Below, piece by piece: positions 13,842 to 45,127 of a DNA stretch of 64,000 nt. The stretch comes from a virus. The stretch is from IMG/VR virus record IMGVR_UViG_3300049783_001607. One strand, 5' to 3'. The notes below the pieces were generated by a model. That model made no database searches and was not told where the DNA came from. It saw only the letters and a program-made list of their open reading frames with translations. Numbering within the stretch: the first letter of the stretch is position 1; the number at the start of each line of letters is the position of its first letter. The position numbers were made by a program, and so were the translations under genes.

Positions 13842-14367
13842 GGTTACTTATTGCTATGTCCATCAATTCTTTATTATTAGAAAGAAACTGTGTTATATAA
13901 TCATCTAGTATAACAGTGGATATTTCATTATAAGATTTATTAAATTCAAAAGTGTATTTTTCTAAGCTAGTTTTAGTTTTCGATTCAATATCTTTTTTTA
14001 ATATGTTATAAACATGATCACTATGATCAATCATAAAGGAAGTTAAAGCATCTCCTTTTGAAGCAATTTGATCAGACAGCATAAATCTATCAAATATTTT
14101 TAAAATTCCGTCATCTATAAGTATATCACCCTGTTCATTTTTTTTACCTAATGCTAAATTGTATATATTGTCATTGTACATAAAACCTTTAGCACTTAAC
14201 TTATTTTCTTTATAAAGATATCGTTTAACTCTAAATGAATAAAAGTCATTATTTAACATCTGAATAATTTTTTTTACTTTTGGATCTTTAAAAGCCTCCA
14301 TAAAATCTTTTTGTGTTAAAGTAGTTTTCTCTTTTAATTTTTTATCAAATCTATTTAATTCTCTCAT
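13831..14367 (-). CDS. Hypothetical protein
   Basis: 178-aa ORF in a tightly packed operon. Confidence 0.6.
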   Translation of the reverse strand: MRELNRFDKKLKEKTTLTQKDFMEAFKDPKVKKIIQMLNNDFYSFRVKRYLYKENKLSAKGFMYNDNIYNLALGKKNEQGDILIDDGILKIFDRFMLSDQIASKGDALTSFMIDHSDHVYNILKKDIESKTKTSLEKYTFEFNKSYNEISTVILDDYITQFLSNNKELMDIAISNHEK

Positions 14368-14621
14368 TATTTCTGTATTACTTTTACAATTTGTAATTTT
14401 TCTTCTATCGAGATAAATGTATTTATTAAAGTATCGGCATACGCTTTTTCTATACTCATTTCAGTATTTGAATTGTTTTTTAGTAAGCAGGCTCCAAATA
14501 ATATCATTACAGGATGTATTACCACGTCTAACTTTATCTCTTTATTTGTTTTTTCACAAACTACTACAGAAAAAGAGATGAAGCTTAGTCCGTTATGTTC
14601 TTTAGTTTTGCTCATATACAT
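14367..14621 (-). CDS. Hypothetical protein
   Basis: 84-aa ORF coupled to its downstream neighbour. Confidence 0.55.
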   Translation of the reverse strand: MYMSKTKEHNGLSFISFSVVVCEKTNKEIKLDVVIHPVMILFGACLLKNNSNTEMSIEKAYADTLINTFISIEEKLQIVKVIQK

Positions 14622-14671
14622 TATTTCTAAAGGGCCACTAATTATTTCTAATTAATGACCCAGTCTATTAA

Positions 14672-18704: not shown

Positions 18705-19442
18705 TTAATTATTTTCTTTTAATGCCCCGTCCTCATCAACTGTATAAGGGTCTGATGATACATCTAACATCTCAGTTGTTTCATAAATACCCATGAAAAT
18801 ATCCGCTGCATATAGTCTTAGCGCTTCTGTAATACACCTAGTTCTAAGCATTAAAATAGGTCTTTTAATGTAATTATCTCTACCTTCTAACCCAGCTTTT
18901 TTAATTTCACTCCATCTTTTACTAAATCTATGGACTTTAACAGCGTTATTATATTCTTTGTATTTACGTGTAATTTCAACAGTGGTAATTATATCAGTTA
19001 GCTTCTTATCTTTATTGTATATTCGTACATAATCTTCCACTACATCTACTAAAATATTATTTTTTAGAGCTAATCCTAAATACATATGTACACCGATAAC
19101 TACTTTACCTTTAACAACATGCATACCATTTAAAGCTACCCATGGTGATATGTTTAATTCTCTTCCGTATTCTACAATAGCTATTACAGCTCCGATAGCT
19201 TTTTTACGGTATTCGTCGTCTTCAAGATGATCTGGTGTAGCTAGGGTTTCAGGTAACAAGCCTGATTGAATCATTTCTACAGCAAACATTTTTTTTTCGT
19301 CCATTGAAGTTGCCATATCAATTGAATTGGATATTTGTCTAGGAGTTAGCGGTTTCATTACAACTAATTCATGTTTAATATCCGTAGTTTCTTCATCGAA
19401 TTTTTTAGCCTCTTTTGAATTGTCTTTTTGTTTTTTATCCAT
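18705..19442 (-). CDS. RecT/Redbeta-like single-strand annealing protein
   Basis: YGRELNISPWVALNGMHVVKGK and NYIKRPILMLRTRCITEALRLYAADIFMGIY patterns. Confidence 0.75.
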   Translation of the reverse strand: MDKKQKDNSKEAKKFDEETTDIKHELVVMKPLTPRQISNSIDMATSMDEKKMFAVEMIQSGLLPETLATPDHLEDDEYRKKAIGAVIAIVEYGRELNISPWVALNGMHVVKGKVVIGVHMYLGLALKNNILVDVVEDYVRIYNKDKKLTDIITTVEITRKYKEYNNAVKVHRFSKRWSEIKKAGLEGRDNYIKRPILMLRTRCITEALRLYAADIFMGIYETTEMLDVSSDPYTVDEDGALKENN

Positions 19443-30044: not shown

Positions 30045-31262
30045 TTACAATCTTTTATTAACTTCTTCAATTTGACTATTTAAATTAGATATAACTTCTT
30101 TTTTAATAGTCTCCCACTCACTATCTAAAAGTGAAGCATAATCAGATGGGTGATACATTCCTTTACTTACTGCAAAATGACCTCCAGTAACCATGTAACG
30201 TCTACATCTTAAAGCTCCATCAGAGCTGTATAAATCACAAACTGCGCCTATATCTTCAGGGGCTACTAAACAATCTACTAAAAATGAAGTCTTTTTTCCA
30301 AAATTTTGTACATAATAATAGCCACCTACATGCAATCCTTTAACTCCACTCATATCGTCATTAGTATTTACCTGCTTAAAACCTTTAGATAACTCGTGAA
30401 TTCTGCCTATTTTAATAACATGTCCTAAAGCAGGAGTTTCATTAGTATCATTTATATCTTTACAAGAAAAAGAATCTCCGGTTCTACGCATTATTGGAGG
30501 TTGAAATAAAAAATCTTCCGCTTCTTTTGGTAAATCTAATTCATCTTTAATTATTTCTCCGGTTACTTCATCAACTTCAAGAACTTTTGTGTATCTATCT
30601 ACTTCTTCAATAACTTGTTCTCCAGCTTCATTTTTTACTACTATGAACTTTGTATTTAAAAGTTCTACGTATTTAAAAGCAGCTAATATACCTTGTTCTG
30701 TAATACTAATTTGATCAAAGGTAGATAAATTTTTTGCTATCTGATCAGAATACCCTTCTTTTTCTATCAGTCTAGCTTTATTTTCTTCATCTACGTATTG
30801 AGTTTTAAGGTATGTAATTAATTGCTCAACTTTTGAATTACTATTAGCATACAATTTATTTCTCATTAATCTCACCCAAAAAATTAACCATGGCTTACAA
30901 GATAATTCTTTATCGTTAGCTTCAATCATTTTGTTAATAAAAAAAGTATGTACAGGTTTTACACTGGCTACTTTGTTACTAACTATATGATAAGCATTAG
31001 TTTTTTCATTATAGATAAGATTTCCTTTTAAAGTTTCTACAAGAGAGTTGCTATCTACGTCTCTCAAATCTTTTACAAATTCAAATGCTGTAGTAAGTAC
31101 TGAAGCAGCTTCTTTGCTAGTTTTAGAATTGTTATAGTTTTTTGACGCGCTTACTAAGAACGATTTAAGTTCCGGGGTTAATTTACTTGAGTAGGGATTT
31201 TTACCTATTTTACCTGATAAATACTCGATTTCATTTACTTTAATAACATTGATTGTAATCAT
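30045..31262 (-). CDS. rIIB: rIIB-like protein
   Basis: GLHVGGYYY, LVAPEDIGAV and LRCRRY motifs; downstream of rIIA. Confidence 0.8.
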   Translation of the reverse strand: MITINVIKVNEIEYLSGKIGKNPYSSKLTPELKSFLVSASKNYNNSKTSKEAASVLTTAFEFVKDLRDVDSNSLVETLKGNLIYNEKTNAYHIVSNKVASVKPVHTFFINKMIEANDKELSCKPWLIFWVRLMRNKLYANSNSKVEQLITYLKTQYVDEENKARLIEKEGYSDQIAKNLSTFDQISITEQGILAAFKYVELLNTKFIVVKNEAGEQVIEEVDRYTKVLEVDEVTGEIIKDELDLPKEAEDFLFQPPIMRRTGDSFSCKDINDTNETPALGHVIKIGRIHELSKGFKQVNTNDDMSGVKGLHVGGYYYVQNFGKKTSFLVDCLVAPEDIGAVCDLYSSDGALRCRRYMVTGGHFAVSKGMYHPSDYASLLDSEWETIKKEVISNLNSQIEEVNKRL

Positions 31263-31280
31263 ATTTAGTTTATTTAATTA

Positions 31281-33635
31281 TTATTTATATTTGATACTGG
31301 ATTCTAATTTTCTTTGTTTTGTTTGTTTTTTTAAATATTTTTTATTGTCTTCTCTTATACTTTTTATTTTTGGATTAGCTGTTAAATCTATATCTTTTTT
31401 ATCTAATTTGTAATCTTTAAAAGAATGGTTAAGATACGAAAAACCGTTTATATCAAAGCTATCTAACGATTTTTTTTCATTATGAAGATTTAGCATTACT
31501 TCTTTTGATCCCCTGTCGATTATAAGTTTACCCAAATGAGTAAAATTTAATTGCCCGAAGTTTATTGTATACATCGAATCTATTAATAATTTTACTCCTG
31601 GAACTTTATAAAAGCGTTTAAAATTTTCCATAGAAAAACCTACTATCTTTATGGCATCTGGAAATTTAACGTATTTACCTTCTTCAAATAATTTATCGAT
31701 GTTAGGATCACCGCTCACATAAATTATTATCTTATCTTCAGATGCTTTTTTTTCATCGTAGTAATTTCTATAAGTATACATTCCAGTAGAATGTAAATTA
31801 CCTATAACTTTTCCCGAAGCTTTAGCTCTTTCTGCTCTAGTCATATATTTTCCACCGCTTTCTTTTTCTTCTTCTTGCTTTTTTGATAAAGCAGTCATCA
31901 GTGTTTTATCTATATCTTCTTCAAATAAAAGCCTTCTATTTTCATGTCTTTCAGAGTAACTTATTACTTCATACATTAAAACATCCTTCCAATTTTTTTT
32001 CTTGTATGCTTCTGATTGTAAATGTAACAGTGTAAAACCTATTTTTGAATCGTCAATTTTATCTATATAACTATTGTATAAACTTTCTTTAATATAAATT
32101 ACTTCGATAGTAGTGTTACTAATACCATTATGATCAGCAATATATCTGCCTATACCTACTGACTTAGTATCGCCAACATAGATGTGTACGTTTGAATTAG
32201 AATTTTTATCGCTTAAACACGCTATATAGTCTTTACTTAAAGCGCTTTTATATTCTGTATTATTGTATACATTTTCACTAGAATAAGTATTAGCACGTTG
32301 TGTAGAAGTGAATATAAATTCTTTTTTCATAGTGTCATCATTCAATTGAATAGCAGCTTCTCCAATATTAAATCCTCTAAAATTATTGTTTATTTTAGAT
32401 ATATCAATAATTTTATATAGCTCTGATAAACCATTAATACTATTATTACTTTTAAATTTATCAAGAAGTGTAAGAAAATCAGGTAAGCTTTTTTCATCTT
32501 TAATTTTGTCTTGGATAATATTTTCAACAGTTTTTTGAGCTGTTAAAAACATTTCTTTTATAGCGTTCCGTGTTTTACTATTCCATATAACATTTTCTCT
32601 TGATGGAGTAACATCTACTGAATTAATATTAGCAATAAAAGATACATTCCCGGAATATTTTTTCATTTCAAGCTCTTCAAAATTAATTGGTCCGTAAGAT
32701 ATTAATACATCTGAGGAATCTCCGGGACGTAACAAAATTTGAGGGGTCGCATAATAATTAGATTCTCCAACAATTATAGAATCTGAAGAGTATAAAATTT
32801 CATTTGCTATATTTCTTTTTGACGGTTCGCCTTTATATAGCATATCTTTCATTAATAACTCAACGTTAGATATAAAACCCAGTTGATTTTCTACGCTATT
32901 AATAAAATCCATTTTTCTATGTCTTTTTACTTCTGCTTCTACTATAACACTATTTTTTTTATCGGATTTTCTATAAAATATTGTGTATTCTTTATCAACT
33001 TCTCCTTTAAAAAATGTTTCTTCTTCGTTTATTATTTCGTCTTCAAATTTAGAAACTGCAGATATTAAATGATCTTTATATACATCAAAAGAATACTCTC
33101 TTCCGTTATATATAGATGTAACAGTATAAAAATCTATACCGGTTGCTAACAATGATTTAGCCCCTAATCCAAAAGAACCTAATTGACTTTTATTTAATCT
33201 TTTAGTGCTGTAACCAAGATCGAAATAATTTATAAGTCTAGTTCCTCCTAAACCTACACCTCTATCAATAAATTTAATTCTGTCTCTTGTAGCTGTATCA
33301 TTTTCAATATATAAAATAGTTACATTTTTATCATCACTTAGATATTTTTTATCATAGTATTCAGGTTTAAATCTAGATCCAGAAAATTCTGACCCTTCTT
33401 TTTCTATGTAAATATCTTCTACTTTAATTTCTCCATTTATTATTTTAAGAGCGTTATCTCTTTCTGTAATTGAATCTAAACAATTAGATACAATTTCTCT
33501 AACAGAAGATTTGAATGGATACATGTACTGGGTTTCTTGCAAAACACTAAACATGATAGATTCCGATCCTTTATGAATCCCTTTCTTACGCGTACTGTTT
33601 CCAATACCTTCTGTGGCTTTAATATTTGATATCAT
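31281..33635 (-). CDS. rIIA: rIIA-like protein with GHKL/Hsp90-type ATPase N-terminus
   Basis: REIVSNCLDS, DRGVGL, GYSTK, GSFGLGAKS, VTPSRE. Confidence 0.85.
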   Translation of the reverse strand: MISNIKATEGIGNSTRKKGIHKGSESIMFSVLQETQYMYPFKSSVREIVSNCLDSITERDNALKIINGEIKVEDIYIEKEGSEFSGSRFKPEYYDKKYLSDDKNVTILYIENDTATRDRIKFIDRGVGLGGTRLINYFDLGYSTKRLNKSQLGSFGLGAKSLLATGIDFYTVTSIYNGREYSFDVYKDHLISAVSKFEDEIINEEETFFKGEVDKEYTIFYRKSDKKNSVIVEAEVKRHRKMDFINSVENQLGFISNVELLMKDMLYKGEPSKRNIANEILYSSDSIIVGESNYYATPQILLRPGDSSDVLISYGPINFEELEMKKYSGNVSFIANINSVDVTPSRENVIWNSKTRNAIKEMFLTAQKTVENIIQDKIKDEKSLPDFLTLLDKFKSNNSINGLSELYKIIDISKINNNFRGFNIGEAAIQLNDDTMKKEFIFTSTQRANTYSSENVYNNTEYKSALSKDYIACLSDKNSNSNVHIYVGDTKSVGIGRYIADHNGISNTTIEVIYIKESLYNSYIDKIDDSKIGFTLLHLQSEAYKKKNWKDVLMYEVISYSERHENRRLLFEEDIDKTLMTALSKKQEEEKESGGKYMTRAERAKASGKVIGNLHSTGMYTYRNYYDEKKASEDKIIIYVSGDPNIDKLFEEGKYVKFPDAIKIVGFSMENFKRFYKVPGVKLLIDSMYTINFGQLNFTHLGKLIIDRGSKEVMLNLHNEKKSLDSFDINGFSYLNHSFKDYKLDKKDIDLTANPKIKSIREDNKKYLKKQTKQRKLESSIKYK

Positions 33636-35978: not shown

Positions 35979-36495
35979 AATTTTTGTTGAGTTTGTTTAA
36001 CAGGCCGGTTATTTTTTTACTTTTAAATTAAATGGTTTAACATGCCCTTCTTTAGCAGAATACCACTTCCCTTGATAATTAAATTCAAATCCACTATCTC
36101 TCATACAAATAACCATTTTTTCTCCGTCACTTGTTTTTAATACAACAGAGTTAAATACTTCTTCAAGGTGCATTGTGTTTTCTTCGTTTACTGTAATTCT
36201 CATTTTTATTTATTAAATTATGTGTCGACACTTGTTCTACACTTGTCATTAGAATTAATACTACTTTACGTTTATTTCAACAATACTGACCATTTCATCT
36301 TCTTGCACTTCTTGTAAAGTGTAATCTGTGTAATTTTCCCATTCTTCATTATCAATGGCTTCTTGTGCTTTTTCTCTTGTCTTAAAAGTTCCTTTTGCTT
36401 TTGGCATTTCCCACTCGCATTTAATTTTGTAAATTTTCATACTTTTTATATTTATTGAACCAATGTTTTTATTTACGCAACTAATTTTATTTTCA

Positions 36496-36876
36496 TTATA
36501 TGTGACTCCATTCACCGTACTTTTTAGAAAGTTTATCTAACTGTTCTAATTCGATTCTCTTAATTCTGTCTTGCTCTTTTTTTTGCTCTTCCTCCTCCCG
36601 CTTTTTATAACGTAATTTTTCTTTTTCACAGGCATTTTCATACTCTTGTTTTGTTATCAAACCTAATTCAAGTAAAGTAGGTTCTGTTTCGTCTTTACTA
36701 TATTGATTTAAATTAACCTCTTCTCTTTTATGTCCAAAACTTTCTGTAATATCATTCACTATAAAAACAGCAAAAGTATTGTCAGAGAATTTAACCCAAA
36801 GATCACCAAAATACATTTTTGTATCGGCTATTGTTTTTCCTTTTAAGCCTTTTAAATTTGTTATTTCATTTTTCAT
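36496..36876 (-). CDS. Hypothetical protein
   Basis: 126-aa ORF with a coiled-coil-like tail. Confidence 0.55.
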   Translation of the reverse strand: MKNEITNLKGLKGKTIADTKMYFGDLWVKFSDNTFAVFIVNDITESFGHKREEVNLNQYSKDETEPTLLELGLITKQEYENACEKEKLRYKKREEEEQKKEQDRIKRIELEQLDKLSKKYGEWSHI

Positions 36877-36904
36877 TTTAATATAGTTTTGTTATTAATT
36901 AAAA

Positions 36905-36967
36905 ACTGCAACTAACACTATGCAAAGTGCATTAAAACGCACCTTGCACTTGATTGTTCTAAACAAT
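36905..36967 (+). repeat. Complete short attC-like hairpin site
   Basis: ACTAAC-acta-TGCAAAGTGC-attaaaac-GCACCTTGCA-cttgatt-GTT; 9/10 stem with asymmetric 4/7-nt spacers. Confidence 0.6.
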
Positions 36968-37276
36968 AAAAGGGCTTTCATTCATTGCTTTTGTGTAGTA
37001 CTTGCAAAGTTGTTTGTGTGTAAACTCTCTTTTTCCATCTTTAGAAACCCATTGGTAAACTTTTGGTCTGTACTTAAAAAATTTCTCTATATAATCATTA
37101 AAGGCTTGTGTGTACTTATCGCCCTTTAACTGTGTAGAACAATGTGTAAAATCAATGGCTTTATCTCGCCTATCTATAAGAGTTTGTACCATATTAAATA
37201 TTCTTATTTCATTAACACCGCTATCAAATATATGCTGTATCTCTACTTTTAAGTCTGTCTTTTCTTGTTCTGTCAT
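36959..37276 (-). CDS. Hypothetical protein that translates through an attC-like left arm (AIDFTHCSTQL)
   Basis: 105-aa ORF; its start codon lies inside the loop of the 37128-37336 hairpin. Confidence 0.55.
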   Translation of the reverse strand: MTEQEKTDLKVEIQHIFDSGVNEIRIFNMVQTLIDRRDKAIDFTHCSTQLKGDKYTQAFNDYIEKFFKYRPKVYQWVSKDGKREFTHKQLCKYYTKAMNESPFIV

Positions 37277-37336
37277 TATCTATTTTGTTTAGTTATTAAT
37301 TCACGCCACTAATCTTACACTCAACGTTACCTTCAA
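37128..37336 (+). repeat. Long-loop attC-like site
   Basis: AAC-aat-GTGTAAAATCAATGGC pairs 13/16 with GCCACTAATCTTACAC-tcaac-GTT across a ~145-nt loop. Confidence 0.6.
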
Positions 37337-37338
37337 TA

Positions 37339-37650
37339 CTACTTTAGTACATCATAAGCACTTTTAAAGTAGCTTGGTTTTACAGGCCAGCAATGTTTAC
37401 CTAATTCTTTTGTATATCCAAATACGATATAATCACCGATACTTGCTATTTGTGTTTCACCGCCAATTTCAGGTGTTTTAAGTTTCAGGCCTTCACGTTT
37501 CACAATATTTTCGTAATCATCCCATTTATCGGATGCTATGTTATGTGATAAATCAGGCTTACTAAATACTTCTGTGTAAACCTCAAAAATGTTGTTTTCT
37601 TTTAGCTGAATAAATTCAATTATTACAGGCTTCTTTTGTGCTTTTTCCAT
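37339..37650 (-). CDS. Conserved small phage protein (KKPV...GDYIV...PVKP family)
   Basis: KKPVIIEFIQ, ASIGDYIV, WPVKPSYFKSAY. Confidence 0.6.
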   Translation of the reverse strand: MEKAQKKPVIIEFIQLKENNIFEVYTEVFSKPDLSHNIASDKWDDYENIVKREGLKLKTPEIGGETQIASIGDYIVFGYTKELGKHCWPVKPSYFKSAYDVLK

Positions 37651-37668
37651 CCGATTAATTTATTTGGT

Positions 37669-37976
37669 TTCATAATTTATAAAGGTTTATTAAATCTGCC
37701 TAAAAAGCATACTATATCATTAATTAGAAATAACTCATATTAAAATCCCCTTTTTTAAATGTTTTCTGCATTTCTAATTTTTCTCGCCAGCCTTTTCCGT
37801 ATTTTTTATTTATTTCACATCTTGCTTTTCCGTGATAGTCTTTTACTCCTTGCAACTTTAGGTTTTTAGATAAAGTTTTTAACTCTTTGCTTATATCTTT
37901 TTGTTTTTTTTCTATTTCTTTATTATTCATAATTTATAGAAGTTTATTAAATCTACCTAAAAAGCATACTATTTCA
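37669..37976. repeat. 51-bp direct repeat (47/51 identical) flanking ORF 37724-37930
   Basis: 37669-37719 versus 37926-37976. Confidence 0.85.
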
Positions 37977-38494
37977 CAATCTAATGTCCCATTACATAAA
38001 AGCTTTTTAATAGCTGGATTTTCATCTTTATGCAAAGAACTTACTATTTTTTTAACTCGTCTATTGCTTAAAGAAGTGTCTTGATATTTCAAACCGCATT
38101 TTGTTTTCCAATCAAATAATATTTTATTGTTATTTTTATTTCTATAAACAAACTTCACTTCATACCAGTAATATTTTTTAGACAGCACTTTGTATAATAA
38201 GGCGTACATCATATTTGCTTCTCTATTTTTGCCTAAGTACTCTATTAATTTATTCATTTGTTTTTATTTATTTAATTACTATTTATCTCTCCAATTTTTA
38301 ATTTTTCTCTTTTCATTTTAACTTCATTCTCAAAGTTTATAAAAAAATCAATTAAATTTTTATCGTCATCATCTGTTTCTAAAGCTTCAATTAATAAGTC
38401 TTTAGTATTTTTAAGTAAAAAAGGGATGTATGATTTTGTTATTATATTTTCTGTTATTTTGCTCATCTTATATTAGTGACTTTATGTGCAATGA

Positions 38495-38938
38495 CTACAT
38501 TTCGTTTTGAGAAAACTTATCTCCTAATAACTCTAGTCTTTGTCCTAATACTTGCAAATACTCATTCATTAATCTTGATTGTGTATAAAGTAAATCTTTG
38601 TTTACTCTATCTAAATCAACGAAATTTTTAGTGCGCATAAAATCGTTTAAAGAGTTTGTTTTAGTCGCTAATTCTCTAGTTTGATTTAGTAATCTATCAT
38701 AAAAAGTTTCAGATTGCTTGTAAATTTTATCAAAAACATCTTTTGGACTCCAAGAAATATAGCCATCGTGGTTTTTGTGGTTAGGTTTTCCACTTTCGAT
38801 ATATTCAACTAACATACCATCTTCGTTACTATCCTCATTAGATGGCTGCTCCCATCCTCTATAAGAATTGTACTCTTCTTTTTTCATGGATACAGCTTTT
38901 AAAGTCTTTGTCCCTGTGTAATTAATCATTCCTTTCAT
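38495..38938 (-). CDS. Conserved phage protein (crAss001_48-like, YISWSPKDVF family)
   Basis: YTGTKTLKA, GYISWSPKDVF, QSRLMNEYLQVLGQR. Confidence 0.65.
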   Translation of the reverse strand: MKGMINYTGTKTLKAVSMKKEEYNSYRGWEQPSNEDSNEDGMLVEYIESGKPNHKNHDGYISWSPKDVFDKIYKQSETFYDRLLNQTRELATKTNSLNDFMRTKNFVDLDRVNKDLLYTQSRLMNEYLQVLGQRLELLGDKFSQNEM

Positions 38939-39570
38939 TATGTAAAATTTAAAATATTTGCTTACTCTATTTTAAGGTTTTCAGCTTATCCTTTAATTTA
39001 ATAATTCGTCAAATCTACGCTTAACGGTAGTTCATAAACTTGAAATTCACTGAATGTTTCAGTTTTTCTATCTTCATCCGTATAACCACTCAAACCAATT
39101 TCATTATATTTTCCATGAGGAAATAGTTTTATAAAAGTTACTTCGTGAATACAATCTTTTCTTTCGTTTAGGTCGGTGTGATTTTCAATTTCAGAAACAA
39201 AATCTCCTACTTTTAATTTTTTTACATTTACTGACATAATAGTTTCAGTTTTTTTTTATTTTAAATTAACATTATCATAAGAAATTTTAGGAGTAAACTT
39301 AAAATCTTCAGATAGCCAATATTCCCACATCTCATCATCAGTTATAAGACCTTCTTTTCCAAGCTTTTTTATTATACTGGATTTTTCTTGTGTTATATTG
39401 TTTATAGTTTCATTAGAGTATATTTGTTCTATCGATTTTGTTTCTATAGGACCTATCATTTTTTTAACAATTTTAGTTCTATTTATTAACATTTCATCAA
39501 TGGTGTTTAATCTTTTTAAAATATAATTTATTTCCATAATCTACTTCTTTTTAATTAAATAATTCAATTT

Positions 39571-39598
39571 TAACTAACACGTAATATAAAACATACAC
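39571..39598 (+). repeat. attC-like left half-site
   Basis: AACTAACACGTAATATAAAACATAC matches the YAACA-n-TAAA consensus of the other sites. Confidence 0.4.
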
Positions 39599-39977
39599 TC
39601 ATTTAGTTCTGTGGTCTAAACAATCATTTCCGTATATTTCAGTAGGTATATTTCCACAAACCTTACATTTAATTACAAAGTATTTAGAACCAAATATCCT
39701 TGCTAATAATCTTGTAATTGGGCCATAAAATAATACGTTTTCGGGTCTGCTATAATATTTTGCTTTCATAATTATATTTTTTAGTTTAATAATATTAAGT
39801 AAATTAACTTCTACCCAAGTTGGTTAACACGCCATGAGCGGTTTTTACTATCTCGCCAAATACTCCTACAATTAAGTGTGTTTATTTCATCACCCCACAC
39901 ATTACCAATAAAAGAAAAGCCACGCTCTCTTGCTTCTTCAATGTCAATGCTTATAAATAATTGTCTATACTTATCAC

Positions 39978-40011
39978 GCACAGAATACAACAATGTATAA
40001 AATGCATTGCT
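39978..40011 (+). repeat. attC-like left half-site translated inside ORF 39811-40038 (SNAFYTLLYSV)
   Basis: TACAACAATGTATAAAATGCATTGC. Confidence 0.55.
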
Positions 40012-40461
40012 TTTTGTTTTTTGCCAATATTCAGCCATAATTTTAATTTTAGTTTTATTGAATTATTTTTTTCATATCATTGTCTTTATTTTAAAAATTA
40101 TTCAGTTTCCCAATAAATCCTACTGCTTGTCCAAGGATATATGACTCTTGCTTGTTTTTTATTACATTTTATACATTTTCTTTCACTTGGTATTGTTTCT
40201 CTCCATTTGTGTAATCCTATAAAACATTTAATTCTATCAATCATAATTCTCTATTTTTCGCATTTATAACAATCTTCACCTACTTCACCATTTTCTGTTA
40301 TTAAATAACCTGTTAATGAAACGCATATTAGTCCCAACTTTTCATATAATATTCTAAGTCACTATGTATAAACCCATCATTATTTTTATTTCTGTGTTTT
40401 TCTCGTAAAGCTCCTTCGTATATTCCTTCTTCGTATGCACTTTTCATATTTTCAAAAGAAT

Positions 40462-40496
40462 AACTATTTTTAACACCTGATAAAAGTAATTGCTCG
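40462..40496 (+). repeat. attC-like left half-site translated inside ORF 40328-40615 (EQLLLSGVKNS)
   Basis: TTTAACACCTGATAAAAGTAATTGCTCG. Confidence 0.55.
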
Positions 40497-40617
40497 GTTT
40501 GGTAACTGTCTAATAATTCAACTAATTCCTCAAAAGTAAAGGACTGCCTAAAATTAGGGTGTTTAACTTTTTTGCCATTACTGTACTTGTCTATTAAGTA
40601 TTTTTTATTGTCCATTT

Positions 40618-41016
40618 TTATTTAATTTTAACTTTGTCAACAACGTATATACTCCCTGTAATTGTTACGTCATTTAAACTTTTAGTGCCGATATCTCTAA
40701 TTTCTCCTTTTAAATTAGCTCCTGTAGAAGATTCAACATCATCTAATATTTTATACGCTAAACATTTACCTTTTTCATTCCAAACAATCTCTCTATTTTT
40801 ACCTACGTAACCGTCATTAACAAAAACAGTATCTCCTATAAATACTTTAACTTTGTTTATATCTTCAAAACCTGCATATTGCCTAGTGTAAATAAGATTT
40901 AAACTATCCCATACATCACACCTGTGCTTTATTTTTGGTATTTCAGAAATATGGTATTGTTTTTTTACTATTCCGTTTACACTTTCAAATCCGTACTCAA
41001 ATATATTTTCGTTCAT
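40618..41016 (-). CDS. YopX-family protein
   Basis: RQYAGFEDINKVKVFIGDTV and ITGSIY resemble the YopX pattern. Confidence 0.65.
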   Translation of the reverse strand: MNENIFEYGFESVNGIVKKQYHISEIPKIKHRCDVWDSLNLIYTRQYAGFEDINKVKVFIGDTVFVNDGYVGKNREIVWNEKGKCLAYKILDDVESSTGANLKGEIRDIGTKSLNDVTITGSIYVVDKVKIK

Positions 41017-42326
41017 AATTATATTTTTAGTTTGATAATACTAAGTAAATTAACTTCTACCTAAAGTCCAATTAATCCACCTTTCTTGTTGTGTTAATGG
41101 CTTCGGTTCAAATCGTTTTCCGTAATCATTTAAAACTTTTGTGGCTTGGTCAGGAGTTGCTTTATAAGCGTTTTTATATCCCTCTTTTATTATTTTAAAT
41201 AATTGCTCGTCTTGTCTCTTTTCAGAAGAACAATCTATTACAGTTGGTGAATTGTTTTTGTGTAATTTATATACTATGCAATGAGTTATTTTTTTCATTT
41301 TGTTTAATTAATAATTATTTACTAGTCAAAAATATTATTCAACTTTATTAATATCCTCAAAGTGTGTTTTTAGAACTTTCATAGCATTATCAAAGTTTTT
41401 GTCTACTGTATTAACTTCATCTTTATATTCAGAAGAACTATCATCGTATAAGATAGTCCATCCGTTCTCACCAGATTGTATTGTTACTACTAATTGGCTC
41501 GTACCAACTTTAAATAATTCTTTTCTTTTTACCTCACTTGAAGGCATCATTCCCATAAATCTATCCATACTTTTAAATTTAATTTGTTTTATTATTGCCT
41601 TTTAATTCTGTATACTTTGTTTTATCTAATTGTTTATATGCAGTTGGGACATAGCTCTAACGCTTGTTTTAACCCTTTTTCTAAAGCCTCTTCATAAATA
41701 TATTTAATCAAACTAATTGATGGTATTTTATTAAAATATTCATCTTGAAAAAGGGTGTAACATTGCCATCCTGTTTGTTTTTCTCCCATTTTATCATCTC
41801 CATAAACAGGTTTTAAACACAAGTTTATATTTTTTGTTTCTCTCAACCATTTTTGTAAATAACTTTGAGAAGGCCTTATGTAAAGTGATTGTTTGCTATG
41901 CATATACCCTTTTTTCTTTGCTAAATTAAATACTTTAAGCGTAACTAATTTGTCGTTTGTATCCGTAGTTTTTTGTATCGTATTTTTAGTATGTGTATTG
42001 CTTATCTTGTGTTTTTTATCGTCTGTATTCATACTTTTTAATTTAATTTGTTTTTTAGTTGGTATTTAAAATATTCATTGCCATCACCATCTATAAATAT
42101 TATTTCATAGTATCCAGTCCACACTGTACCGCCTAACATATTTTTAATATTAAATATTTTATTACCTCTTCTAGTTCTTTTTGGCGAAAATATTTTTTTA
42201 TCTTCTGTTAAGTATGTTTTATTTAAAGCTATTTTCATATTATTGTCTTTTAATTCTTTCCATTCCGTTACAACCTAAACATTGCGTACCGCATCTCAAA
42301 CCATTTGATTCCTCAGAATGACAATA

Positions 42327-42569
42327 AAACGGTTTAACAACATCAGGTAAAGTCAATGCTATTTTATAGTCTTCGAATACACATAGCGCTGTACCCCAGA
42401 ATCTATCAACTCCATTGCTGTCTCTATCGTGGCTTGGGTTTCTTTTATCCCATAAGTTTTGTAATAACTTCTGTTTTTGTTCTTCAGTTCTTTCCATTTT
42501 TGTATCTTAATTAACTTAGTTGCTTTTTAAATATCGCAACGAAACTTTATATCATATGTTAGTAGCAAT
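42327..42569 (+). repeat. Long-loop attC-like site enclosing the start of ORF 42240-42497
   Basis: Left arm AACAACATCAGGTAAAGTCAATGC (42336-42359); right arm GCAACGAAACTTTATATCATATGTTAGTAGCAAT (42536-42569); pairing only partial. Confidence 0.5.
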
Positions 42570-42599
42570 AATTTTTTAGCCGCCTACACGTGCCAATCA

Positions 42600-43199
42600 T
42601 TACGCTTTAAACTCGTGGTTTATTGGTAATGTAATTCTATACATAACTCTATGTATGTCTTTATCTAAAGGCAAACTTTCGTGTATAAATTGCGAGTTTC
42701 CATAATAAACTTTATTTGCATCAAGTTTAAATCCTTTCCCTAATTCAATGTGTCTACAATCTCCACCTATTCCAGCGTTGCCCTTAAAATCACCATTCCA
42801 TCCTTTAGAAGAAGAATAATTTGAAGCAATTAACATCCCGCCTTTTTCATTTTCATAAGATAATTTATGTTCAATTGTATTTAATTGGTTTCCATTTTCG
42901 CCAATCTTCCATCCATTCCCTCCGCCGTCAGAACCCCATTTTAAAGATTCTAAAAAGTTGCCGTCAATATGTGGCGAACCACGTCTTAAAGTATTTGCTT
43001 TTTTAACAAACTTTCCGTGTACAGTTAAAAATGCTTCACCTATTTTGTTAGGTAAGTTTTTAATCATTTCTTTTGCCGTCTCTCTAAATTCTATAGGCAA
43101 TGTCATTAAGTTGCTTAAATCAAATGCTAGCATACTTGTCTCTCCATTGTAAAAAGGTATTTCAATACTATTCATTTTTTTTGATATACTTGTAATCAT
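42600..43199 (-). CDS. Putative 2OG-Fe(II) oxygenase-fold protein
   Basis: RRGSPHIDG (HxD), distal HESLP and a C-terminal R..YR; phage dioxygenase-like. Confidence 0.6.
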   Translation of the reverse strand: MITSISKKMNSIEIPFYNGETSMLAFDLSNLMTLPIEFRETAKEMIKNLPNKIGEAFLTVHGKFVKKANTLRRGSPHIDGNFLESLKWGSDGGGNGWKIGENGNQLNTIEHKLSYENEKGGMLIASNYSSSKGWNGDFKGNAGIGGDCRHIELGKGFKLDANKVYYGNSQFIHESLPLDKDIHRVMYRITLPINHEFKA

Positions 43200-43371
43200 A
43201 ATTTATGCATTTATTAATTTCTTGTTTTTTTATTAATTAATTCTTGGTCTAGGGCATTGTAAAATTCTTCATCTAGGTATTTTTTATTTATTCTTTTAAC
43301 ACAGCTTAAAGGTATGTCATAAGCCTCTGCCGTTTCTTTTAGTATTCCAATTGATCTAGTCATAATTAAAA

Positions 43372-43474
43372 GTGCCTAACAATAGCTAAAATTAATAACG
43401 TTAATAGGTCTTTGTTTTTTATTTTGGTTAGCAATTAAAGGCTACTAATTTTAGCCTTGGGCGTTTTAAGTAAT
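43372..43474 (+). repeat. Complete attC-like site with a canonical RYYYAAC inverse core
   Basis: GCCTAAC-aata-GCTAAAATTAATAAC ... GCTACTAATTTTAGC-cttgggc-GTT; 13/15 stem, 4/7-nt spacers. Confidence 0.65.
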
Positions 43475-43733
43475 TAAACGTTATAAACAAATAAAATTAT
43501 TTCCACATTCTTTCAAACCAAGTTGTGTACTTAACATTAAAATCAGTATCTAACAAAATTGCAGGTTCAGTGTAATTTGTTTTCTTCCAACCCTCTTTTA
43601 AAAGGGTTTTTTCAACTTTTCTGTATTCTTTTTGGTTTTCTAAAGTCCAGTTTATTTTAAATGATGTTTTTACCATGATTTTTTAGTTATTAAATCGTTT
43701 TACGCATATACAAATAATTAAAAACATTAAACG

Positions 43734-44132
43734 CTATTGTTTATGTCTACTTTCACCGCTTATATGAATTTCTCTATCTTTAGGCGGTGTCGGTGGTAAA
43801 GGTTTGTTTTTGCTAACAAACGCATCCCAATAACTGACGTGCTTAGTAATAACATTGCCACCGCCGCAGCAGTAGACATTTCTCTCTTGGCATCCATTAG
43901 GCTCAAGCTCTTTATCACAAAGTTCTTTGACAATAAATACCTTATCATCTTTAAACCAATCTTTTTGACACACGTTATGCGTCCCACCAGAAAAGTCACC
44001 TTCTAATTCAATTTCATTTTGACGTATTCCTACCACTTTAAATGGTTCTTTTCCTTGATAAACATCTTCAATATAAACAGGGTACATATTAAGTATTTTA
44101 TACCCTTTAATCGGTAATTTTTTGTATTTCAT
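43734..44132 (-). CDS. Hypothetical protein
   Basis: 132-aa ORF with ELEGDFSGGTHNVCQKDW. Confidence 0.55.
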   Translation of the reverse strand: MKYKKLPIKGYKILNMYPVYIEDVYQGKEPFKVVGIRQNEIELEGDFSGGTHNVCQKDWFKDDKVFIVKELCDKELEPNGCQERNVYCCGGGNVITKHVSYWDAFVSKNKPLPPTPPKDREIHISGESRHKQ

Positions 44133-44376
44133 TTAGCGTTATTTAATAGCGTTAATTTTATCTGTGATTTGTTAACATTAATTAATGCTTTATTGTAGCC
44201 TTCTATCCAACATTCTCTATATTGTTCGTTTTCATCCCATAGTTCAGGGTTATCACCTACTGTCACCAACTTTTCAGGGTAGGCTTCTAATGCTAATTTC
44301 TGTATATCTATCATAATTTATTAATTTAAGTCGCACTACTAATACTACCACAAAAACAAACTAACTGTTTTTTTGT

Positions 44377-44646
44377 CGTACAACATTATGTAAATTTAAT
44401 TGCTCGACTACGTAGTTATCTAGTAACTTTTCCATGTCATTTACAATCATGATGCATTCGATACGTTTATCTGTTTTATCAAGTTCCTGTGCTAATTTAA
44501 GAAGTTTAAGTATTATTTCTTTATGTGCCATTCAATTAAAGTATTTTAATATTTGTTAGCATAGTAATTTTATCACAGCACTATGAATATCCATCACATT
44601 AGAGTGCATTAAAACGCACAATAACATTATGTATAGGTAATATTAC
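44377..44646 (+). repeat. Two attC-like left arms and a degenerate right arm
   Basis: TACAACATTATGTAAATTTAATTGCTCG (44379-44406); AATAACATTATGTATAGG (44620-44637); 17-mer AGTGCATTAAAACGCAC at 44603-44619 is identical to 36926-36942. Confidence 0.55.
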
Positions 44647-45127
44647 CCTTTCTTTAGTGCTTCTAATTGTCTGTGTAAATCAAGTATTACTTTTTCTTCA
44701 TTAGTTAAAGGGTCTTGACTTGCTGTATCTGGTTCAAGTCTTGCCACATACACAGACCCGTCCGTTAGTTCAATAAATATTGCGTTCATAATTATATTTT
44801 TAGTTGTTTAATTAAATTTACAACTTTACGCAAGAATATAATTTTTTCACTTCTATAAGGTGTTATTGTTTTACCAAGCTTTGTATTTGTTGCTTGTTTT
44901 AATTCGCTTTTTGCCCAATTTAGCAAATCAAGTGTATTTTTTGTAGATGCCAAAAGCGCTTTATTTTTTAAAATTAATTCTTGATTTGCGTATTCTTGCA
45001 TTTGTATTGTTATCCAATCATCATTTATTGTTTCATGTGAATCCCATTTATCTCCTCTCATTTGAGGATATTTATCTTGTAAAAATTTTTTTGCTGACAT
45101 TATTTGATGTTTTATTTATAAAAGATT

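Follow-up and report, generated by a model that had tools for sequence, protein, structure and literature searches.

The 64,000-nt stretch of viral DNA analysed here (IMG/VR record IMGVR_UViG_3300049783_001607, hereafter the window) carries at 36.9-44.6 kb a series of hairpin elements with AAC and GTT cores, which an earlier reading of the sequence (the original prediction) had taken for an array of integron attC sites in a crAss-like phage. The hairpin elements are confirmed to be real, and the array works like an integron but lies outside the IntI/attC family by four tested features. On the best explanation of the whole, the region is probably an array in partial decay that belongs to an integron-like cassette system found in Flavobacteriia, while the cassette reading of the family at large is strong.

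Hairpin sites of the window and their anatomy

A 16-nt motif of the window is present in 114 viral stretches, where it mostly forms the loop of a short AAC...GTT site or an empty spacer running from GTT to the next AAC. The window was excluded when profiles of the left and right arms of such sites were trained, for which 123 other viral loci served, and the sites were assessed by these profiles and by pair counts. Among all left arms in the 64 kb, the nine that score best (at every left core of Table 1 except 40639) and, among the right arms, the best four (at the GTT cores of the four complete sites) all lie at 36-45 kb on the plus strand; the opposite strand of this region gave none, and neither did the remaining 55 kb of the window. 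Order-3 Markov simulations predict 0.115 left and 0.065 right arms per strand (max 2). The profiles recover what had been seen by eye, namely about ten related elements in one orientation, four complete sites (those with the four best right arms) and no site outside 36-45 kb, in numbers (nine and four arms against about 0.1 expected) that set them apart from random sequence. The canonical GCCTAAC at 43374 is present as well.

The five left half-sites proposed earlier (39571, 39978, 40462, 44377 and 44620) are all among the nine best arms, but the one at 44377 is probably not an orphan, as its arm (AAC at 44382) and the mutated right core at 44598 probably form one fifth site. Among the degenerate right ends proposed with them, that at 44577-44610 is probably the partner of 44377, that at 36227-36264 is weak (score 9.3), and the score of that at 38477-38498 (7.8) lies within the background noise. 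As in clusters of attC sites, including those lacking integron-integrases (CALINs), two or more sites with RYYYAAC ... GTTRRRY cores are grouped in a single orientation. A search of Rfam gave no match to the hairpin sites, and the folding energy of single sites is not a good test of them (z = -3.7 for 36908-36968 and z = -0.6 for 43372-43478).

Across the family, a site is an imperfect inverted repeat in which an AAC core and a 3-nt spacer lead into a stem (about 14-17 bp), followed by a loop, the returning stem, 5-6 nt and a GTT core. In 373 of 415 sites the right spacer exceeds the left by 2-3 nt, as had been proposed from the window. Pairing is ungapped over 14 stem positions. On the top strand, A.C occupies position 7 in 323 and position 12 in 327 of the 415 sites (~78%), so that the bottom strand has two fixed G.T wobbles. 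True stem partners pair at 6.6 of 8 positions, compared with 4.7 for random partners, and all four Watson-Crick pair types occur at several stem positions in non-homologous sites. Moreover, the bottom strand folds more stably in 240 of 269 sites. The covarying imperfect stem, the unpaired central spacer and the bottom-strand preference are all shared with attC.

Canonical attC sites possess extrahelical bases and are 57-141 bp long (PMC5371416). The sites described here have no extrahelical bases in the L box and show the two conserved A.C/G.T positions instead; 91 of 301 sites are longer than 141 nt, and loops of up to 200-300 nt contain ORF (open reading frame) starts, unlike the non-coding loop of attC. 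A reversed reading, with the minus strand as the top strand, was rejected because the genes of host arrays lie on the top strand in the plus sense and the attI-like sites end in GTT. As well, non-homologous sites fall into length classes of about 52-67, 94, 131, 200, 230 and 285 nt, with almost none at 140-185 nt; in phage loci L010-L209 these classes fit best to a period of ~37 nt, and hosts share the classes of 94, 131 and 200 nt. A length ruler, such as wrapping by a single-strand-binding protein, would be a guess.

Movement of cassettes and re-pairing of modules

Comparison of related loci shows that cassettes, each consisting of an inter-site segment and the site that follows it, have evidently been inserted, lost and reordered with breakpoints between the G and the TT of the right core (G/TT), which is also the crossover point of attC. 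Identity steps sharply at GTT in 18 + 18 pairs of loci that share either the loop or the downstream segment, and two phage contigs that are 98-100% identical (L201 and L202) carry their cassette blocks in different order with junctions at G/TT. The window unit 36956-37329 recurs in another phage (L208) with unrelated flanks on both sides, and the 94% identity of this cassette in its other context suggests that the exchange was fairly recent. At the empty spacer 44598-44625, homology with L002 begins exactly at the TT of the core. Furthermore, the bases after GTT are complementary to those before the next AAC at 6.1 of 9 positions, while the complementarity of an inter-site segment to the site that it now closes (3.08) equals that of random pairs (3.09; n = 206 for both), and each inter-site segment was therefore once closed on itself. 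The earlier claim of a cassette array that exchanges units is thus borne out by the breakpoints in related phages.

The genes of the phage arrays are mostly antisense to the sites. The longest ORF of an inter-site segment lies on the bottom strand in 127 of 134 phage cases (top strand, 7), compared with 3 of 34 in host arrays (top strand, 31), and a cassette gene on the top strand that ends before the site, as in attC cassettes, is the rule only in host arrays. Many phage ORFs have their start in the loop, about 50 nt inward of the right core, and read through the left arm; 149 of 476 left arms are crossed by an ORF, and in 117 of these 149 the core is read in frame as GTT (Val). All gene-like ORFs in 35.5-45 kb of the window are likewise on the minus strand.

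Loop modules and inter-site modules have evidently been re-paired at or just inside AAC, and the comparisons show that chimeric small proteins are the product. Five homologues of ORF 36959-37276 share its N-half only, and at least nine share its C-half only. For ORF 42240-42497, the N-half alone is shared by P0014, P0015 and a Tenacibaculum phage JQ protein and the C-half alone by P0016, with the switch located at the core (Val), while the N-module of ORF 44361-44531 has another C-end in L065. Across loci, the partner module differs entirely in 9 pairs that are N-homologous and in 14 that are C-homologous, a count in which BLAST may have missed short modules. In their variable positions, left arms agree with the loop at 0.77 but with the upstream segment at only 0.45 (random, 0.39), which places the exchange point at or just inside AAC, and identity between L130 and L131 begins exactly at AAC. 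The original prediction had overlooked the antisense genes, their starts in the loop, the chimeric ORFs that read through the arm and the decay of the array; its cassette idea stands.

Table 1. Sites, arms, cassettes and ORFs of the array, in window coordinates.
Feature	Coordinates	Strand	Remarks
Right arm, probably degenerate, weak	36222..36259	+	Core ATT 36248; score 9.3, near background
126-aa cassette gene, phrog_33653	36496..36876	-	Two unrelated phages have it in their arrays, one case between sites, one in a loop
Complete short site, 53 nt	36905..36967	+	AAC 36914, GTT 36956; loop is the common GTGCATTAAAACGCAC hairpin
Whole cassette (inter-site segment and next site, TT...G)	36957..37326	+	94% identical copy in another phage, breakpoints at both GTT cores
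105-aa chimeric ORF, crosses left arm	36959..37276	-	5 other C-ends occur with this N-module, at least 9 other N-ends with this C-module
Complete long site, 199 nt	37128..37336	+	AAC 37138, GTT 37326; loop contains 5' half of ORF 36959-37276
Orphan left arm, right arm lost	39567..39598	+	AAC 39576
Orphan left arm within ORF 39811-40038	39978..40011	+	AAC 39989; homologue in L030 is part of a complete 130-nt site
Orphan left arm within ORF 40328-40615	40462..40494	+	AAC 40472; core GTT in frame as Val
Weak additional left arm, C-terminus of YopX-like ORF 40618-41016	40630..40661	+	AAC 40639; score 6.7
85-aa chimeric ORF	42240..42497	-	N-module and C-module each with other partners; switch at core Val
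Complete long site, 230 nt, stem partly decayed	42327..42569	+	AAC 42339, GTT 42558
Complete 96-nt site, non-coding loop	43372..43474	+	AAC 43378, GTT 43463
Decayed 227-nt site	44373..44609	+	AAC 44382; right core changed to ATT at 44598; loop contains ORF 44361-44531
Empty inter-site spacer, 28 nt	44598..44625	+	Common to ~17 other phage contexts
Orphan left arm	44614..44645	+	AAC 44623; ORF 44643-44789 (-) ends just before the arm

Recombinase, host arrays and competing explanations

For hosts, metagenome contigs were examined. On chromosomal contigs of Flavobacteriia type, the arm profiles pick out ~131-nt sites that lie at intervals between top-strand genes, and the sites are a widespread Flavobacteriia family, which occurs on host chromosomes and in some temperate phages. 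In four loci (L193; L195, Galbibacter; L197, Aureibaculum; L198), a tyrosine recombinase of 365-373 aa is directly followed by a half-hairpin ending in GTT, which resembles attI; the array then follows in L193, L195 and L197, while L198 holds the recombinase and attI-like site only. A shorter homologue of this recombinase, likewise with an attI-like site, heads the arrays of phage L085 and Polaribacter phage Leef_1, and own-end complementarity in the enzyme-linked arrays is mostly 6/6. The recombinase gives a split match of 184 bits on TIGR02249, which does not reach the cut-off of 265, and aligns with XerA colinearly and without a gap, and therefore has no IntI insertion. A Xer-like recombinase without the IntI insertion is the likely enzyme of the system. 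The recombinase profile found no match in P12002L gp61, which lies beside its phage's array and also has no Pfam match, or in the 431-aa integrase of G001, and PF00589 is absent from two near-complete viral genomes that carry sites or the motif.

Several observations accompany the survey of hosts. The Galbibacter array (L195:9700-15800) holds the same 333-nt, apparently gene-less cassette with identical ends four times. On Acinetobacter plasmid NZ_CP041297 (L212:4028-6210), a recombinase annotated xerD/tnpF (TnpF), which has 50% identity to the host enzyme, directly precedes tet(X3) on its upstream side, and the order is xerD/tnpF, a hairpin ending in GTT, tet(X3) and a CTAAC-type left arm; by eye, this is the layout of an enzyme, an attI-like site and a first cassette. 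The marine arm profile gave no score on the L212 hairpins, and a blastn search of an array against plasmids returned nothing useful. A 2.5-kb contig with a phage-type array (L125) is filed in a Mycoplasma metagenome-assembled genome and is probably mis-binned.

We propose that the Xer-like enzyme would recombine the folded single strand, with the bottom strand giving the G/TT events and the top strand, or a step of cassette building, giving the events on the AAC side. Because no such gene lies in the window, the phage would have gained and edited its cassettes with an enzyme supplied in trans, by the host or a co-infecting phage, presumably helped by homologous recombination, and the array would since have lost arms. 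A more far-reaching version, in which the recombinase acts on both strands, loops and inter-site segments are two independently mobile types of module that together form a combinatorial generator of small phage proteins, and joining on the AAC side builds new cassettes, is speculative and rather unlikely.

Some points weigh against the proposed system. As stated in the original prediction, there is no integrase in the window (a six-frame scan of the 64 kb with the recombinase profile gave no match), and host array L190 has no recombinase within 10 kb. The link between recombinase and sites is shown as an association, through gene neighbourhood, and the compared pairs of loci are phylogenetically non-independent. 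The expectation that breaks in synteny coincide with the cores holds sharply at GTT, but the identity step at the left core is blurred and less sharp. L203 and the window keep both arms and differ by replacement of the loop interior alone, which a crossover at the cores cannot explain. Homologous recombination accordingly has a part in the exchange, and one of the window's genes (18705-19442) codes for a RecT-like annealing protein. Finally, strains that are 99.9% identical over 11.4 kb and 99.3% identical over 4.4 kb carry an identical array layout.

This last point is also consistent with a dead relic, acquired as a block, whose arms survive only as protein-coding or leader sequence, which we regard as a serious possibility that falls somewhat short of an even chance. 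Five left arms of the window are without a right arm (three of them inside ORFs), two cores read ATT, and own-end complementarity is 4-7 of 9, compared with nearly perfect values in the recombinase-linked arrays; a search for lost right arms by own-complement stayed at chance level. Given the broken arms, the missing recombinase and the unchanged near-identical strains, the window array looks aged, and either slow or inactive. However, four sites are intact, and the cassette 36957-37326 sits at 94% identity in a different context. A relic in the window would not conflict with what is proposed for the family as a whole.

It is possible, if less to be expected, that site-specific events occur only at G/TT and that the N/C chimeras arise by homologous recombination of the RecT/Rad52 type in similar left arms, selected for frame and stem. 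Such a hybrid would account for the loop-interior swap in L203 and for the RecT-like gene, to which P12002L adds a Rad52-like gene; in addition, pairs with the same segment and different loops show slightly raised identity immediately inward of the left core, and some modules change frame and arm together. The arm positions that follow the loop instead of the upstream segment, and the identity of L130 and L131 that starts exactly at AAC, speak against it.

That the array is an ordinary CALIN, in which a classical host IntI integrase acts on canonical attC sites, is improbable, and the earlier reading as IntI-type attC sites is not supported in that form. The core and box order are the same, and phage CALINs are already known: Qi et al. 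(2023) described 17 of them, including that of the virulent Polaribacter phage P12002L (PMC9892861). According to the assay reported there, IntI1 recombined P12002L_attC2, and P12002L_attC1 was the one site that was not recombined (PMC9892861). By our profiles, attC2 has only the left arm of the present family, while attC1, which failed with IntI1, is a complete member. Moreover, the absence of an extrahelical base, the right spacer longer by 2 or 3 nt, the many sites beyond 57-141 bp with long coding loops, the antisense genes and the associated enzyme, with its TIGR02249 score below cut-off and its colinearity with XerA, do not fit IntI-type attC sites, and complete integrons are rare in Bacteroidetes (PMC9024848).

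A very improbable reading is that the hairpins are regulatory (promoter or terminator) and act as islands of homology for shuffling without a site-specific enzyme, like the promoter early stem-loops (PeSLs) of T4-type phages that offer a precedent (PMC2839356); the window's lack of a recombinase and hairpin 36920-36949, terminator-like on the coding strand (a call made for one site only), would suit it, but the 3-nt cores are constant among sites of different stem sequence, breakpoints lie at G/TT, many arms lie inside ORFs, matches to sigma-70-type promoters are not enriched (42 against 52.8, in a scan that omits Bacteroidota promoters), and neither self-complementary segment ends nor an attI-like site with a recombinase at array heads is predicted.

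Genomic setting and relation to known systems

The window is low in GC and belongs to a sea-ice phage known from ice metagenomes, whose replication block includes PolA, a DnaB-like and a RecD-like helicase, ligase and ThyA. The crAss-like label given earlier is plausible, as the best full-length matches of PolA are Crassvirales (crAss phages, ~24% identity), but membership is unproven; of the Crassvirales markers (capsid, terminase and virion RNA polymerase), the capsid and the terminase were not identified among the window proteins, and two window proteins of 2154 aa had no match among solved structures. No close relatives were found in viral contigs by way of the deoxynucleoside monophosphate kinase, the ligase or ORF 36959-37276, blastn of the array region against phages gave short matches only, and reads from four sequencing runs yielded fragmented low-depth contigs with no informative joint.

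Several other genes and repeats were recorded in the window. A rIIA/rIIB-like gene pair lies at 30045-33635 (-). Within the array region, gene 38495-38938 (-) encodes a 147-aa protein of PF21825 (library names crAss001_48 and Sequestin), possibly an anti-defence gene, and directly upstream of it is a DUF805b RNA motif (Rfam RF02914, above the gathering score; 38959-38994, -). Direct repeats of 83-93% (37669-37719 / 37926-37976; 39757-39818 / 41004-41064 / 44777-44812) span junctions of gene ends and gene starts; they are unrelated to the hairpin sites and are possibly traces of homologous recombination or duplicated gene ends. Compared with L211, the region 43734-44314 has two ORFs (61 and 132 aa) that are a single 196-aa ORF in other strains, a polymorphism due to a 10-nt insertion at 44124-44130.

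The family suggests that an integron-like system exists in Bacteroidetes, a phylum considered poor in integrons, in which IntegronFinder seldom detects them (PMC9024848); standard models do not cover such long sites or the Xer-like enzyme, which is probably why the system escaped notice. It would explain the many small proteins of Flavobacteriia phages that have a common central linker and unrelated halves, and would be a route to new phage proteins by site-directed domain shuffling. How cassettes are made is largely unknown (PMC5371416). The self-complementary ends, the re-pairing on the AAC side and the fixed loop sizes bear on this origin, and joining on the AAC side, if true, would offer an experimental handle on it. 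Since the layout of TnpF directly upstream of tet(X3) is similar, the system may also have a bearing on the way in which resistance genes left Flavobacteria.

In shufflons, such as that of R64 (Rci/pilV), a tyrosine recombinase swaps protein C-termini in frame by inverting segments at double-stranded repeats of one locus. Here, in contrast, both halves of the protein vary, the sites have a single orientation, and the modules travel between genomes. The PeSL cassettes of T4-type phages share with the present array the repeated hairpins that mark modular shuffling in regions of small ORFs (PMC2839356). However, the PeSL repeats, which contain promoter and terminator, recombine among themselves and are not read through as protein, and the available part of that paper describes no fixed 3-nt crossover core or attI-linked recombinase (PMC2839356). 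A literature search did not find the present architecture described, most subscription papers being beyond its reach.

The CALIN of P12002L likewise consists of clustered attC-like sites without an integrase in a phage, but two sites are called in the accessible text (PMC9892861), compared with ~14 complete sites by the present profile, and coding loops, antisense genes, chimeric proteins or a Xer-like enzyme are not described in that text. In this phage (L124), some sites (14266-14624, 29239 and 37265) lie opposite to the main-array strand, and several DNA methyltransferase genes are located between sites. In Riemerella anatipestifer, a gene and the 140 bp downstream of it, which are attC-like, are integrated together in the absence of flanking homology, by an enzyme that was not identified (PMC13148043); this is likewise a Flavobacteriia unit with attC-like DNA.

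Sedentary chromosomal integrons, such as that of Vibrio with its VCR (Vibrio cholerae repeat) sites (PMC5371416), share the imperfect AAC...GTT hairpins, the bottom-strand bias, the crossover at G/TT, the self-complementary cassette ends and, in host arrays, the homogeneous ~131-nt repeats. The present family differs from them in having no extrahelical base, an outer stem that covaries over 6-9 nt, sites of up to 300 nt or more, a recombinase without the IntI insertion that is co-oriented with the host array, and phage genes that are antisense and overlap the site.

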